From a virus, in the IMG/VR virus record IMGVR_UViG_3300017917_002068, positions 1-64,000 of that record: a DNA stretch of 64,000 bases; one strand, 5' to 3'. Below, piece by piece: positions 53,405 through 60,226 of the stretch (positions within the stretch are counted from its first letter, which is position 1; each line of letters begins with the position of its first letter). A program made the position numbers and the translations under genes. Below the pieces are notes generated by a model. The model did no database searches. It had not been told where the DNA came from and saw only the letters and a list, made by a program, of their open reading frames with translations.

Positions 53405-54154
53405 ATGAGAGACATATTATCTAAATTAGACGCTTTAATAAGCGAAACCGCACTTCGAGACAAAGAAGATCTAGAAGCTAAAAGACAGGCTCTAGCTGAT
53501 CTAGAAGCCGATCCGATAGCTAGTCAAGACCCAGAAATTTCAGCAGCCATCGATCAGCGCAAAGCTGATCTAGAAAAAGAGGCTAAATCTAAAGGATTTA
53601 CAGAAGACGAAGATCTTTATCAGATCGGAGACGATTTTGGTATCAGTTTTTCTGAAGATTTCGAAGTTGGAACTGAAATCGTAGATATCGTAGAAGACGG
53701 TATCGTTATCGATCTAGACGAAACAGCGTTCGAATATCTAACACAAAATGGTTTTACATTCGAAGAGATACAGTTAGACGAAGAAAAACAAAAAGGTCTA
53801 GATGGCAAAGCCTGCTGGAAAGGTTACAAGCGTATGGGCACTAAAATGAAAGGTGGCAAACGTGTAGATAACTGTGTTAAGATGGGCGAAGATATTGACG
53901 AAGAACAAACAGATGAAGCCAAATATCAAGGACGTGAAGTTCCATTAGGCAAGCCCATGAAAGGTGATGTCAAGAAATCTAAGGTCTATGTTAGAAATCC
54001 GCAAGGCAATGTTGTAAAAGTTAATTTCGGCGACAAGAAGATGCGTATTAAGAAATCTAATCCTAATCGCCGCAAGAGTTTCCGTGCTAGACATAACTGC
54101 GCCAATCCAGGTCCAAGACATAAAGCACGTTATTGGTCATGTAGGGCTTGGTAA
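53405..54154 (+). CDS. Modular acidic/basic protein, candidate internal head protein
   Basis: GATAAATA upstream; modules CWKGY..NCVK and V.FG...FRARHNC...YWSC. Confidence 0.8.
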   Translation: MRDILSKLDALISETALRDKEDLEAKRQALADLEADPIASQDPEISAAIDQRKADLEKEAKSKGFTEDEDLYQIGDDFGISFSEDFEVGTEIVDIVEDGIVIDLDETAFEYLTQNGFTFEEIQLDEEKQKGLDGKACWKGYKRMGTKMKGGKRVDNCVKMGEDIDEEQTDEAKYQGREVPLGKPMKGDVKKSKVYVRNPQGNVVKVNFGDKKMRIKKSNPNRRKSFRARHNCANPGPRHKARYWSCRAW

Positions 54155-54155
54155 T

Positions 54156-54521
54156 ATGAAATTAATAGAATTATTTTCTCGTCCAGATCCGGACAGTGAT
54201 GACAAAAGAAAAGATCCTAGATTAGATCATGAGATCAATTATGCCGATGATTTAAAATATTTCATCGACAACGAAGATACTGTTTTATCAAAGTTTTTCT
54301 TTCCAGCTATCGACAAACAAAAAAGAATGAATGATCAAGAAGGTTCTTTTAAATTGTATATAGATCCTGTTTCTAAATCAGTTGATATATATTGCAAAAA
54401 ATTTAAGCTAGATGATATTAGAGATAAGATCTTTAATAAAGAAATAATTTCTGATGTTGCTAAAAAAATCGCCAGTGAGCAAAGCGAGCATATCAAGAAA
54501 AAGGCCTACGACGAAAAATGA
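54156..54521 (+). CDS. Hypothetical protein (MKLIELF...)
   Basis: ATG immediately after the upstream stop. Confidence 0.75.
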   Translation: MKLIELFSRPDPDSDDKRKDPRLDHEINYADDLKYFIDNEDTVLSKFFFPAIDKQKRMNDQEGSFKLYIDPVSKSVDIYCKKFKLDDIRDKIFNKEIISDVAKKIASEQSEHIKKKAYDEK

Positions 54522-55678
54522 AACTAAGACAGCTATTTGAAAGTTCTGGTAAAACAGCGGCAGTCACATTTGGCCGATTAAATCCCCCTACCATTGGACA
54601 TCAAAAATTAGTCAATGCTGTATTAAAGCAAAAAGCCGATGCACATTTTTTGTTTGTTTCGCAGACAACTAAAACTACAGGAAAAAATGCTACTCGTCTT
54701 GCAAATCCTATACCTTTCGATATTAAATTAGGATTTGTACAAAAAGCTTTTCCGAATATTAACATCGGTGATACATCAGTAAAAACAGTAATAAGTATGC
54801 TACAGTTTTTAGAACAACAAGGTTATGAAAATGTTATTTTTGTAGGCGGATCAGATCGTGTTGCAGACTTTGAAGAATTGTTTAATAAACAAAATGGTAT
54901 CGATTACAATCTTAAATCAATTCAAGTAGTATCGAGTGGTGAAAGAGATCCGGATGCAGAAGGTGCAGAAGGTATGAGTGCTAGTAAAATGCGGGCTGCG
55001 GCCATTGCTGATGATTTTAAATCGTTCAAAACCGGATTGCCTTCCGGCTTGCAAGGAGATGCTGAAGAAGTATTTTCCGCTGTTAAACAAGGATTAGAAC
55101 CTTGGCTTGAACAAAAAGTAGGTGAAGGCGTCAAATCAAAAATTGCAGGAGCTGCGTTGGCCGCTGCTAATTTACTAGGCAGTCCAGCACAGGCAGCAGA
55201 AGAACCTGCTAAGCCTATTACTATTGCCTATGTAATGATTGACGGAGAAGTAAGAAAATATAATTTAGGTGATAAATTTAACAATGCTCGTGATGCTGAA
55301 GAATTTATTAGCAGCGTTTTAGATAAAAAAGGACTATCAGGTTACACGCTAGATATCAAACACGGTTATCCTAAAAAGAAAGATGTTAAGGAAGCACCTA
55401 TAGAATTTGATCCAGACGAGCCGATGAATCCGATGATCTACGGTGCCGGTGGCAATCCTGCTAAACTACAATATAGAATGATGCGGGCTGCTAATCAATT
55501 AAAAGATCTAGCATCAAGATCAGAAAAAGCATCTCCTGCCGAATGGCAAACTATTTCTAGACAATTTGACGAGCTGTCTATGAACATCGGTCAAATTAAA
55601 CACGGCTTAGAAGAATTAGCCAAGCAACGAAAGAAAGGCGGAGTTCGTAGCCGAGGCATTGATCCAACCATAGGTTAA
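54518..55678 (+). CDS. HxGH-type nucleotidyltransferase-like domain fused to extra modules
   Basis: FGRLNPPTIGH, GSDR and MSASKMR; C-terminal modules follow VGE and VKE. Confidence 0.75.
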   Translation: MKLRQLFESSGKTAAVTFGRLNPPTIGHQKLVNAVLKQKADAHFLFVSQTTKTTGKNATRLANPIPFDIKLGFVQKAFPNINIGDTSVKTVISMLQFLEQQGYENVIFVGGSDRVADFEELFNKQNGIDYNLKSIQVVSSGERDPDAEGAEGMSASKMRAAAIADDFKSFKTGLPSGLQGDAEEVFSAVKQGLEPWLEQKVGEGVKSKIAGAALAAANLLGSPAQAAEEPAKPITIAYVMIDGEVRKYNLGDKFNNARDAEEFISSVLDKKGLSGYTLDIKHGYPKKKDVKEAPIEFDPDEPMNPMIYGAGGNPAKLQYRMMRAANQLKDLASRSEKASPAEWQTISRQFDELSMNIGQIKHGLEELAKQRKKGGVRSRGIDPTIG

Positions 55679-55681
55679 ATT

Positions 55682-55891
55682 ATGGATTTAAATGATTTAA
55701 AAAAATTAGCAGGGATTAACGAGTTCAAAGGTTATAAACCATATGAAGGTAGTAACGTTTCTATCACAGGTATGGAAAAGCAAGAATTAGAAAAAAAACA
55801 TAATATCAAACCCGGAACTCCCGAATGGTTCCAGCTATGGTTTTCAAAACCTTATCTAACCGGAGAACCACCAGTAGGTAAAAGAAAATGA
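55682..55891 (+). CDS. Hypothetical protein
   Basis: LKKLAGI and [12 protein letters not shown]. Confidence 0.75.
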
Positions 55892-58523: not shown

Positions 58524-58945
58524 AACTAAAAGAAATCATAAGCGAACGTGTTAGAGATCCAGAGGATTGGGACGAGGGTAACACTGAACCCCCAAATAAC
58601 TTCGCTGTTTATATCAATGGTAAAAAATGGAAAGTGTTTAGGGGTCGCGGTACTTATGCCGACGATTTTAAAGAAAAACAACATTTTCAGCAGTTGAAAG
58701 ACTGGGCTCGTAAAAAATCAGAAGCTACGGGTAAGAAATGGGAAGTTTATATCACCGGCGAACAAGCTACAGAAAGTATCAAAGAAACAGCTACGGCAGG
58801 TACTACTAGTGCTGCTAATGTCAGCGTAGGGGCTATCTATAAGAATAAACCCGGAAAAACTCCTAAAAATAAAGACGGAACCGCTAAAAATGCTCTAGAT
58901 ATGAAGGGCACTAATCTACTCACCGGCGGCAGTATCAAAAGATAA
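58520..58945 (+). CDS. Modular hypothetical protein (MKLKEIISE...)
   Basis: Coupled ORF; second module follows IKE (TATAG). Confidence 0.8.
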   Translation: MKLKEIISERVRDPEDWDEGNTEPPNNFAVYINGKKWKVFRGRGTYADDFKEKQHFQQLKDWARKKSEATGKKWEVYITGEQATESIKETATAGTTSAANVSVGAIYKNKPGKTPKNKDGTAKNALDMKGTNLLTGGSIKR

Positions 58946-58953
58946 ATATACAT

Positions 58954-59301
58954 ATGAAAAAACAAATATTCAGAGAATTCTCAGACGATACAGAACAGCC
59001 TAAAGTAGATGATCACGAGGCTAAAATGGCTCGTGCTGACTTGTACAAGCTCAATGAATATTCTGCTAAATTGTTCAAAATGATCGAAGAAGATGATGAA
59101 TTAGATGGTTGGGTACAAGCGAAAATTACCAAGGCTTCGGATTATCTATCCAGTGTTTATCATTATTTAAAATACGAAAGAATGTCAGAATTACAAAACT
59201 CATCAGACGATCAAGTTGAATCTATAGATGAATCAGTTTCTCAACAAATTTCAGAATCTTTAGCCAGCGAATGGCAGAAAATTAAAAACCAAGGAAAATA
59301 A
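58954..59301 (+). CDS. Hypothetical acidic protein
   Basis: GATAAATA upstream; WVQAKITKA.DY motif. Confidence 0.8.
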   Translation: MKKQIFREFSDDTEQPKVDDHEAKMARADLYKLNEYSAKLFKMIEEDDELDGWVQAKITKASDYLSSVYHYLKYERMSELQNSSDDQVESIDESVSQQISESLASEWQKIKNQGK

Positions 59302-59302
59302 A

Positions 59303-60226
59303 ATGGATTTCAACAAACTACTTTCTAAACTCAAAGACATCGACCCAACTAATGTTTTTGATCCTAAAGGCGTTTCTGCTGCTGCTACCGAAGCGGTAAA
59401 ACCTGCGCCAGCTGTTAAACTAGACGAAGCAGCTCAGCTACGTGTGTTAGCTGGACGATCTACTATTCTTGCCGAAAGCGAATTAATGGAAAAGAAATTA
59501 ACTGCTGCCGAAAAAGATAAAAAAGAAGAAGTAGTTAAAAGCATGAAGAAAGATAAAAAAGGATTCATGAAACGCTACGGTGAAAAAGGCGAAGAAGTAA
59601 TGCATGCCACTGCTACTAAGATCGCTAAAAAGAAAGCTGAGAGTGTAGAAGAAGGACAAGAAGATCTAAAAAAGGTTGGCGATAAAGTTAAAACTAGTAA
59701 AGGCGTAATGACTAAAACTGCTACAGGTTTGAAGCATGAGCGTTCTTATGAAAAAGAAAAAGACGAAGATGATGATAAGCCAGCAAAGAAATCAACAAAA
59801 GTCAAAGAAGCAGCTAAGCCAGACTTCTTAGACATCGACAAAGACGGCGACAAGAAAGAGCCAATGAAGAAAGCTGCTGCTGACAAAGACGGCGACAAGA
59901 AAGATGGCAAGAAAGGCATGTCGGCCAAGCAAGAGAAATATTTTGGCAAGAAAAACGAAAGTGCAATGATGCCAAAAGGTAAGAAGCGTCCTGTTAAGGA
60001 AAGCGTCGAACAAAAATTAACTTTTGTAAAATGCCTCCAGGCTGTTAAGGAAAGCAATGGTTCGTTACAAATCGACCCGATGGATAAAACATTATGGACA
60101 TGGGCTCAGAGAGTAGCTGCTGCTAAAGCAGGTACTGGTGCGAAGGCCGATGCTTATGCTGCCAAAGTATATGAATCATACGGCGGTGAGTGGTCATTGT
60201 ATAATACATTAGTCGAAGAAAAATAA
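59303..60226 (+). CDS. Highly charged modular protein, candidate internal head protein
   Basis: Lys/Glu/Asp-rich; many xxE junctions; DKDGDKK x2. Confidence 0.8.
   Translation: MDFNKLLSKLKDIDPTNVFDPKGVSAAATEAVKPAPAVKLDEAAQLRVLAGRSTILAESELMEKKLTAAEKDKKEEVVKSMKKDKKGFMKRYGEKGEEVMHATATKIAKKKAESVEEGQEDLKKVGDKVKTSKGVMTKTATGLKHERSYEKEKDEDDDKPAKKSTKVKEAAKPDFLDIDKDGDKKEPMKKAAADKDGDKKDGKKGMSAKQEKYFGKKNESAMMPKGKKRPVKESVEQKLTFVKCLQAVKESNGSLQIDPMDKTLWTWAQRVAAAKAGTGAKADAYAAKVYESYGGEWSLYNTLVEEK

Follow-up and report, generated by a model that had tools for sequence, protein, structure and literature searches.

A T4-type leader and Glu-ended joints mark a probable operon of head cargo in a phage related to jumbo myoviruses

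Why should neighbouring phage genes that encode unrelated proteins begin with nearly the same few residues, and why should short strings of the type hydrophobic-x-Glu recur where the modules of these proteins meet? Both features come together in a run of closely spaced genes, many with ATGA start/stop overlaps, at positions 53374-60273 of the window, that is, of the 64,000-nucleotide (nt) stretch of viral DNA that we analyzed (IMG/VR record IMGVR_UViG_3300017917_002068, positions 1 to 64,000). The window is the first half of the record, which comprises 128,003 bases and has an estimated completeness of 37%. The gp43-type DNA polymerase of this uncultured, giant, T4-related water phage is nearest to those of the jumbo myoviruses Sinorhizobium phage Phosso (50.3% identity) and Agrobacterium phage Atu_ph07 (46.9%), and is about 44% identical to those of PBECO4/RaK2-like phages. 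An earlier inspection of the window from its letters alone (hereafter the sequence-only reading) had proposed that the run encodes polyproteins with targeting leaders, which are packaged in the capsid, cut by the prohead protease and delivered at infection. Our analysis leads us to a similar answer, with a probability of about 75%: the run is likely to be one late operon, and most of its products are likely to be cargo of the phage head. These products carry P numbers in Table 1.

The nine N-termini that had been quoted are all present on the plus strand at their respective places, and a tenth gene, starting MDFNKLLSKL at 59303, also belongs to the run. We distinguished two types of leader. 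Type A follows the consensus M-[KR]-hydrophobic-x-E-[FLI]-[IVFL]-x-E. Type B is longer (M-[DNR]-[DLF]-x-x-L-..-L-..-I-x-E), is found on P1, P4 and P12, and is conserved in their orthologues. A complete propeptide of about 10-20 residues that ends in (L/I)-x-Glu is present in P3, P8, P10 and P11 (type A) and in P1 and P4 (type B). To count leaders, we applied the simple pattern ^M[KRL]xx[EDQ][FILVM] to the output of a simple caller of open reading frames (ORFs). Six of the 11 genes in 53405-60226 fit the pattern, as against 3 of the 140 other genes called in the 128-kb contig (P-value 2e-6, Fisher test). We then turned to relatives of P8, for which tblastn returned at least 590 matches in IMG/VR, and kept 80 loci with 6-kb flanks. 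Here the pattern is found in 167 of 966 distinct called proteins (17%), all encoded on the strand of the P8 homologue, compared with 43 of the 5,196 internal Met positions of the same proteins (0.8%). Positions that the pattern leaves free are conserved as well: position 3 is A, I, L or F, position 7 is I, V, F or L, and position 9 is Glu in 72 of the 167.

The conservation lies in the peptide. At the conserved Glu5 and Glu9, GAA and GAG are used 102 and 21 times (83% and 17% background in the same genes), and at the conserved Phe6, TTT and TTC are used 49 and 16 times (76% and 24% background). In the 25 nt upstream of leader genes only ordinary Shine-Dalgarno sequence is shared. Nucleotide bias is confined to position 2 (AGA or AAA), with 161 of 196 leader genes beginning ATGA. 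Because synonymous codons match the background and the upstream DNA is not conserved, the leader is under selection at the peptide level. The same two observations exclude that it originated as a DNA-level cassette or recombination site.

The closest known counterparts of the leader are the propeptides of T4, as had been suggested before. In the T4 record, ipII and ipIII start with MKTYQEFIAE↓A, ipI with MKTFKEFTS..ITE↓A, gp24 with MAKINELLRE↓S and gp22 with MLKEQLIAE↓A (arrows mark cuts, in T4 as given in the literature and elsewhere as predicted; the T4 letters are from the record). The core xE(F/L)(I/L)xE is common to these propeptides, to MRAFEFIIKE and MKLKEIISE of the run, and to MRAKEFIVE and MKIKELLE of its relatives. 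According to the available text of PMC9026906, the first 10 residues of IPIII suffice as a capsid-targeting sequence (CTS), in which targeting is the task of residues 4 and 7, and processing that of residues 8 and 10. The propeptides of gp24 and of the internal proteins (IPs) measure 10-20 residues, and the gp21-family proteases all cut after Glu, as far as the accessible part of PMC5694885 describes them.

The relatives of the phage possess the corresponding machinery. A gp21-type protease (Peptidase_S77, E 1e-24 to 4e-28) and a Gp23 capsid protein are both encoded in four of five large related records, including G003, which is syntenic with our record; the fifth is 55% complete. The capsid proteins of the relatives begin M(S)ELLE(S/G)RW and read ..KYLAE↓SATAGATAASNVATLNRVILP in G001 and ..KYLSE↓SATAGATSAGNVATL in G003, just before the region aligned with the mature T4 gp23 core, so that both follow the pattern ..KYL(A/S)E↓SATAGAT(A/S)A(S/G)NVATL. 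By analogy with ..FLTE↓AEIGG of T4, we infer that the capsid protein is cut after KYL(A/S)E. The last module of P10 (E↓TATAGTTSAANVSVG; E↓TATAGATSAGNIATV in relatives) copies this predicted mature N-terminus. A small basic module beginning TATAG(A/T)TSA(A/G)NV occurs at 58787-58945 of the window, within 11973-13166 of the related locus L092 and within 39484-41820 of L121.

Motifs of the same kind separate the modules within the proteins. The joints LDE, TDE, VGE, VKE, IKE, VSE and MRE that had been listed from the letters all exist, and their codons can be located (Table 1). We cut the proteins of the window at these sites, and every module downstream of a cut served as a query against the proteins encoded in the 80 loci. 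Glu stands before the last module of P1 (AKYQGR.., after TDE) in all of its distinct contexts (12 of 12). The same is true for the TATAG.TSA.. module of P10 (after IKE, 12 of 12), which follows a leader directly in six contexts (MKIKELLE and MRISEILE are among these leaders) and is internal in the other six, behind unrelated sequence (SMQE, KFDE, SMEE, HLGE). Glu also precedes the APIEMDP.. module of P3 (after VKE) in 9 of 9 contexts, two of which need a shift of one residue and three of which lie behind a leader, and the RVRDPEDW.. module behind the P10 leader in 5-6 of 8. For the GWKDW element of P7, Glu precedes in 5 of the 6 listed contexts of relatives, counted by eye. Three related loci (L005, L017 and L080) have an independent gene for the GH19 half of P7, which starts MRAHEFVTE followed by KKRKRKK. 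In an alignment of 45 P8 relatives, Glu115 (..TYNVxE) is nearly invariant and the sequences downstream diverge. The expectation that module boundaries in homologues coincide with xxE is thus borne out, and the modules are shuffled between proteins.

We also ran a test that is blind to these sites, by taking 119 leader proteins and aligning the mature part of each, from its first three residues onwards, to internal positions of other proteins. The residue before the module is Glu in 126 of 197 distinct contexts, compared with a background of 6.2%, and many of the remaining 71 contexts are register shifts of one or two residues in Lys/Arg-rich stretches. Two residues ahead of the Glu (P3 in protease notation) we most often counted L (44), followed by V (25), T (19), I (13) and M (9), and directly ahead of it (P2) D (41) and E (31). 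These figures also bear on the simplest explanation of all, namely that the similarity is a by-product of composition, arising from AT-rich gene starts, Glu-rich proteins and a pattern devised post hoc. The pattern was indeed defined after viewing the genes, Glu is common, and the ATGA overlaps bias position 2. Composition would nevertheless have to account for the excess of the pattern at N-termini over internal Met, for the conservation of positions that it does not constrain, and for the Glu before independently mapped module starts. In addition the pattern, once fixed, predicted which proteins are in the virion of another phage, Atu_ph07 (see below). We regard this explanation as extremely improbable.

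The last module of P1 shows what happens to a module outside this setting. It is found in 27 isolate records, of which we opened eight, taking the virus types from the taxonomy lines alone. In three Kyanoviridae records and one 160-kb Flavobacterium myovirus the module lies behind a leader or xxE: C48C1 has MKKFKQYIDE...LTE↓AEYQG, HTVC008M ..LEE↓AEFQG and the Flavobacterium myovirus ..LDE↓GEYRG, and in Melnitz the module is part of a 650-residue chain, MKKFSEIIE↓...MME↓SEYQG. Viruses of other types (four of four) have the module as a gene of its own, without a leader, that starts with M followed by A(K/T/I)Y(Q/K/R)G. These are the Pelagibacter siphophage Kolga (M-AKYQGRTV), the Pelagibacter podophage HTVC026P (M-AKYKGRTV), the Roseobacter phage CRP-902 (M-ATYKGKSV) and a Nitrosopumilaceae spindle-shaped virus (M-AIYRGRKV). 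These starts coincide exactly with the module boundary, and the closing Glu belongs to the linker rather than to the module.

Leader proteins have been detected in the virions of relatives. In purified virions of S-SM1, the 'cytidylyltransferase' T4-GC190 reached 25 peptide counts, compared with 18 for the portal protein and 8 for gp21, and its neighbours T4-GC1453, 1454 and 1455 reached 12, 10 and 7 (Sullivan et al. 2010, PMC3037559, Supplementary Table S8). The enzyme domain of P3 is 36% identical to S-SM1 gp190 over 189 amino acids (aa; E 1e-37). S-SM1 gp190 starts MKKFSAFLNE↓A, gp191 MNLNELPDMSDALKK and gp192 MLSFKELQE↓K.

For Atu_ph07, we compared the annotated starts of 711 of 714 coding sequences (the starts of gp625-627 were uncovered), numbered by order and checked against 14 landmarks, with the 140 rows of the virion table (Supplementary Table S5 of PMC6102473), of which 131 pass the thresholds according to the section of the paper that reports them. 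The leader pattern fits 30 coding sequences, of which the virion table lists 25, compared with 114 of the 681 others (P-value 2e-14); the entries of gp106 and gp199 consist of one peptide each. When a Glu at residues 8-10 is required in addition, the table includes 20 of 20, each supported by two or more unique peptides (P-value 2e-15). The tag therefore has predictive power in a cultured phage, where all strict-leader proteins are in virions as against about 17% of the other proteins. Eleven consecutive paralogues, gp53-gp63 (L121 39484-50592), start M[KR]WxQL(T/N/I)E or MRLFQLLE, and 11 of 11 are in the virion table. Two of them, gp53 and gp54, are fusions that are two- to three-fold longer. 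The 778 residues of gp53 (87 kDa) comprise the leader MKWNDLNE and the joints EVTE, NLTE, NLNE and PITE↓TSSAGSTGAGNVATT, and the TATAG module closes the protein after PITE. In the same table, gp53 peaks in gel band 9, where proteins of 18-29 kDa run, and gp482 and gp483 (32-34 kDa) peak in band 12, together with proteins of 13-16 kDa. As tabulated, these positions fit with cutting of the three proteins.

These data weigh on the possibility that the leader is unrelated to the capsid. The run would then encode ordinary late proteins of the cytoplasm or envelope, including a GH19 tethered in the manner of signal-arrest-release (SAR) endolysins and modules exported by Sec or Tat; the leader would bind the ClpA-like chaperone or affect translation start, and the xxE joints would be relics of fusion. 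Several features are in line with this. The Gly/Ala-rich segment before GH19 and the Sec-like segment of P3 resemble export signals, and Tat-like motifs stand at four of the four joints where we found them (see below). P7 contains a relic leader, MREGIVSE; the ATGA starts favour Lys or Arg at position 2; and the operon follows a ClpA-like gene here and in two related loci, L005 and L006. What is left unexplained is the presence in virions of all strict-leader proteins of Atu_ph07 and of S-SM1 gp190-192, the identity of the motif with the maturation site of the capsid protein itself, and the lack of leaders on the modules in four viruses of other types. Moreover, positions 5-9 are conserved as a peptide at background codon usage. 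We therefore consider this reading improbable.

That the run consists of late genes, as the sequence-only reading had assumed, agrees with its position behind the late-type promoter motif of the phage, ATAAATA. The 128-kb contig contains 16 copies of the motif, 14 of them no more than 80 nt upstream of a start on the same strand and 9 at a distance of 24-40 nt. They mostly precede tail-fibre, baseplate and virion genes. G003 has 41 copies, of which 35 are placed likewise (same strand, 80 nt or less), including one that stands 33 nt ahead of the P1 orthologue. With such placement in both sequences, ATAAATA acts like the core of the late promoter in this group of phages. The late promoter of T4, TATAAATA, shows no enrichment, with 1 copy where 7.3 are expected, and we used the relaxed motif instead. 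Upstream of the run, window positions 44970-46231 hold two genes for 'virion structural proteins' (PHROG 12928 and 13138). The first of them starts MRDIKDILHNIE, which resembles the type-B leader of P1, has ATAAATA 25 nt upstream, and has homologues in PA5oct and PBECO4 that are annotated as structural.

Several observations count against head cargo as the common fate of the products. P2, P7 and P9 have only the first half of the leader, without Glu at residues 8-10, and the ErpA-like gene of the operon is leaderless. Joints often carry Met (SMSE, SMQE, MRE) and are possibly relic or live internal starts, so that the internal joints could in part be relics of gene fusion; Shine-Dalgarno-like sequences gave no decision on internal starts at the joints. 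The Sec- and Tat-like signals behind joints could point to proteins that leave the producing cell by export instead of being packaged. T4-GC190 is undetected in the virion sets of S-PM2 and Syn9 in the tabulated data of PMC3037559. The homologues of the cytidylyltransferase in P-HM2, RaK2 and PAC2 lack a leader, which indicates that the enzyme does not need one, and since the neighbours of the RaK2 and PAC2 enzymes are likewise leaderless, the tag is specific to certain lineages. In Atu_ph07, five pattern-positive proteins (gp216, 227, 360, 365 and 428) are absent from the virion table; none of them has the closing Glu. Many leader proteins of this phage are paralogous (gp53-63; three begin MRLIDLLE), so that the 20 strict-leader proteins represent perhaps 6-7 independent families. 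The Atu_ph07 stock was purified with polyethylene glycol, and its table also lists probable contaminants (RecA-like, ribonucleotide reductase). Finally, we found neither head genes nor a gp21-type protease (Peptidase_S77) in the 128-kb record, and the protease is seen in relatives only. Given that the record is only about 37% complete, this absence is uninformative.

How would such cargo be made? The leader would dock each protein to the core of the assembling prohead, like the CTS of T4. The gp21-type prohead protease would cut behind the Glu that ends the leader and likewise behind the hydrophobic-x-Glu joints, and would split the chains P1, P3, P7, P8 and P10 into separate pieces. These would include a cytidylyltransferase, a HAD-type phosphatase, a GH19 muramidase behind a hydrophobic segment, a conserved domain and small, very basic Cys modules. 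Acidic pro-regions would be discarded, and basic modules and enzymes would stay with the DNA and leave alongside it at infection. Docking, cleavage by the prohead protease, retention in the head, ejection and any effect on the host are inferred. The earlier proposal of a packaged, protease-cut library of effectors thus gains support on packaging and cutting from the leader proteins in the virions of relatives and from their gp21-type protease, and its effector role and delivery stay predictions.

A packaged and processed set of proteins might also do its work in the head. The products would then be parts of the prohead core or DNA-condensing parts, active in the head or expelled as peptides, with acidic pro-regions that neutralise the basic modules until the DNA enters, and would serve charge balance, scaffolding or pressure control. 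The charges suit this idea, since P1 combines a pro-region of net -20 with a module of net +20 and the ends of P8 and P10 have net charges of +12 and +7. There is also a precedent in T4, whose record notes that gp21 cleaves the core proteins gp22, gp67 and gp68, and the last module of P10 copies the start of the capsid protein N-arm. By contrast, no role inside a head is obvious for the enzymes of the run, namely a cytidylyltransferase, a HAD phosphatase and a GH19 whose catalytic motifs are intact. Basic modules also occur as genes of their own in viruses whose capsids are of quite another kind, among them a spindle-shaped virus of archaea, which favours an intracellular function for them. 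We hold this alternative to be unlikely.

Some pieces of the proposed head cargo would acquire export-type signals by cutting. A Sec-like segment in P3 (55127-55195) and the Gly/Ala-rich helix in P7 (57103-57165) each come right after a cut-type Glu. In the relatives L051, L024, L017 and L057, Tat-like (S/D)RRxFL motifs are in four of four cases within 0-2 residues of the Glu of a leader or joint. The segment of P7 differs from what is expected of a SAR endolysin, as it lies at residues ~247-262, behind a HAD domain of 194 residues, and would become N-terminal only upon cleavage at GVGE. We tentatively consider a two-stage address system, although we think it rather doubtful: loading into the head and cutting would come first, and would leave some pieces with new N-termini of the Sec, Tat or SAR type. 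Examples would be E↓GVKSK-IAGAALAAANLLGSPAQA of P3, E↓GWKDW plus the Gly/Ala-rich helix of P7, and E↓(I)DRRGFL.. of relatives. Once ejected into the cytoplasm of the next host, such pieces would be re-exported by the host machinery to membrane or periplasm, and the acidic pro-regions would have kept the very basic DNA-binding modules inert until they were cut. If this is true, a shuffled, pre-made set of cytoplasmic and envelope-directed proteins would be delivered with the DNA.

The system predicted here is most similar to the CTS cargo of T4 (IPI, IPII, IPIII and Alt, and the propeptides of gp24 and gp22). Both have a short N-terminal peptide that ends in hydrophobic-x-Glu on unrelated proteins, with an almost identical xEFIxE or ELLxE core, expression that is late in T4 and predicted to be late-type here, and basic cargo, and, in the relatives of our phage, a gp21-family protease and a gp23-type capsid protein. 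The differences are several. The T4 leader MKTYQEFIAE is one residue longer, and two leader types are used here. About ten genes are gathered in one operon, as against three scattered genes in T4. The proteins here are multi-module chains with internal cut-type joints, which in this phage are known from sequence alone. The cargo includes a cytidylyltransferase, a HAD phosphatase and GH19, and some pieces would begin with Sec- or Tat-like signals. We detected no homology between the mature parts and the T4 IPs: none of them matched an internal-protein or Alt family in Pfam, PHROGs or NCBIfam, and no direct pairwise comparison with the T4 IPs was made.

Two other systems share part of these features. 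The polyvalent proteins combine unrelated effector-type domains in one chain and are predicted to be packaged in capsids, processed and delivered with DNA, according to the accessible text of Iyer et al. 2017 (PMC5512222). Here, too, at least two unrelated domains per chain are found in P1 (two Cys modules), P3 (enzyme and two modules) and P7 (HAD and GH19). The processing of polyvalent proteins is ascribed in that text to built-in peptidases (MPTase and others), whereas here we find joints of the prohead-protease type and a CTS-like leader, neither of which the text describes. We found no peptidase or signature domain of polyvalent proteins in the proteins of the run (Pfam, PHROGs). The ejection proteins of phiKZ and SPN3US are internal to the head, are cut after Glu by a T4-related protease and include enzymes ejected into the host (PMC5694885). 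The protease motif that the sections available from the same paper give for them is (S/A/G)-x-Glu, with a small residue at the protease position P3, as opposed to L, I, V or M here; their propeptides are mostly about 100 residues or longer, with no shared leader of 8-10 residues, and these sections report no chains of shuffled mini-modules. Our literature searches, in which papers on capsid-targeting sequences were judged by title or abstract, turned up no description of arrays of CTS-type leaders or of protease-jointed chains in marine, cyanobacterial or jumbo T4-related phages. The terms internal protein, CTS and gp21 are all absent from the available text of a 2010 review on cyanophages (PMC2984593).

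If our reading is correct, the tagging of T4 capsid cargo is not a curiosity of coliphages but a general and evolvable grammar in abundant aquatic T4-related and jumbo phages. It would explain why virions contain enzymes such as the long-puzzling 'cytidylyltransferase' of cyanophages, and would make virion cargo predictable from sequence alone. Hundreds of small conserved modules would become candidates for the first proteins to enter the cell, for example in counter-defence.

Table 1. Coordinates of the genes and elements of the run (window positions; Glu, last residue before a joint, with its codon).
Feature	Position	Strand	Description
ATAAATA motif	53374..53380	+	Late-promoter-like; 31 nt before first gene
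P1	53405..54154	+	249 aa; type-B leader MRDILSKLDALISE
P1 pro-region	residues 15-106		Acidic, net -20; followed by short linker
P1 module after QLDE	Glu126, 53780-53782		2-Cys, CWKGYKR..NCV
P1 last module, after QTDE	Glu171, 53915-53917		Basic 2-Cys, AKYQGR..RHNC..YWSC, net +20
P2	54156..54521	+	121 aa; starts MKLIELFSRPDPDS (MKLIELF), leader-like, without closing Glu at residues 8-10
P3	54518..55678	+	386 aa; leader MKLRQLFE, then cytidylyltransferase (residues 9-203)
P3 segment after KVGE	Glu203, 55124-55126		Sec-signal-like GVKSK-IAGAALAAANLLGSPAQA and 89-aa module
P3 module after DVKE	Glu292, 55391-55393		APIEFDPDEPMNPMIYG
P4	55682..55891	+	69 aa; type-B leader
ErpA/IscA-type iron-sulfur carrier	55888..56214	+	108 aa; without leader, outside cargo pattern
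Possible ORF	56216..56383	+	55 aa, MDKTLADYINRIANLE; between ErpA-like gene and P7; in ORF list only
P7	56380..57825	+	481 aa; truncated leader MRAHEI, then HAD/PNK-phosphatase-like domain
P7 middle	Glu199, 56974-56976		Relic internal leader MREGIVSE, RKRKRKK, then Gly/Tyr-rich stretch
P7 part after GVGE	Glu241, 57100-57102		GWKDW and Gly/Ala-rich hydrophobic segment, then GH19 muramidase
P8	57822..58334	+	170 aa; leader MRAFEFIIKE
P8 core	residues ~21-115; Glu115, 58164-58166		Highly conserved, ends ..TYNVGE
P8 tail			Basic 2-Cys, NFADGK..ASCSGS..HWCANMKSGK, net +12
P9	58338..58523	+	61 aa; starts MRFEELTKQYKFF (MRFEEL), leader-like, without closing Glu
P10	58520..58945	+	141 aa; leader MKLKEIISE, then module RVRDPEDWDEGNTEPPNNF (RVRDPEDW..)
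P10 module after SIKE	Glu89, 58784-58786		Basic, TATAGTTSAANVSVG (TATAG), net +7
P11	58954..59301	+	115 aa; starts MKKQIFRE, then FSDD
P12	59303..60226	+	307 aa; starts MDFNKLLSKLKDID (MDFNKLLSKL), type-B-like; Lys/Glu/Asp-rich
Terminator-like hairpin	60243..60273	+	GC-rich hairpin and T-run, closes run; read from sequence

The modules that had been named from the letters, namely a cytidylyltransferase in the gene at 54518, a HAD/PNK-phosphatase-like domain and GH19 in the gene at 56380, and Cys mini-modules, are all present. The cytidylyltransferase of P3, at residues 8-196, matches the PHROG cytidyltransferase family (E 9e-51), and the best phmmer match of the enzyme domain among PDB sequences has E 0.19. 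The GH19 of P7 retains HES..E and GRGxIQLTG and shares 39% identity with the endolysin that the phage encodes at 46234-46866. It is thus a second copy, and is dispensable as an endolysin because of this separate gene. The phage has its own lysis pair at 46234-47369 of the window, the GH19 endolysin (210 aa, PHROG_181, E 2e-77) followed by an Rz-like spanin.

P8 gave no tblastn match in 50,697 isolate phage records. Its AlphaFold model (pLDDT 65) has no Foldseek match in the PDB at E <= 0.001, and a search of the ESM Atlas gave only unnamed viral clusters (0.81). For P2, the ORF list also gives a longer GTG frame from 54084. Its orthologues start MKLLEMFSP and MRLFELFGP, and its own start resembles MNIFELFDPE, the start of a 78-aa protein beside the portal gene in G001. 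The leader of P4 is kept in orthologues (MELSELKRLAGINE, MDIKDLKRLAGIEE), and an orthologue of P9 starts MKIEEITGQFKFF. P11 shares the core HEAKMARA.LYKL with genes of the related loci L003 and L006. P12 is not significantly similar to gp191 from the virion of S-SM1, and the possible 55-aa ORF at 56216..56383 has no family match in Pfam or PHROGs.

The ErpA/IscA-type gene scores 157 bits with the NCBIfam model ErpA (cut-off 117), the only NCBIfam match among the proteins of the run, and also matches Pfam Fe-S_biosyn. It holds the same position in L003 and L005. The fragment has three iron-sulfur assembly genes (24897-25869 and 55888-56214), one NifU-like and two ErpA/IscA-like copies, and one of these two copies sits within the cargo operon, beside Cys-containing mini-modules.

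The run is preceded by a gene for a ClpA-like ATPase (50012-52360) and followed, from 60307, by dsbA, the DNA polymerase gene and a clamp-like gene; a sigma-70-like -10 box lies between the hairpin and dsbA. The ClpA-like ATPase (782 aa) closes a proteostasis block at 48719-52360, just upstream of the run, which also contains a peptide deformylase gene and a gene starting MTDYYKILGI, whose product we take to be J-domain-like. In Atu_ph07, a ClpA-like gene adjoins a gene annotated as DnaJ. At the other end of the window, positions 1-4600 contain short called ORFs on both strands, with upstream strings that resemble tRNA arms, and this segment is probably a block of tRNA genes rather than of protein genes.

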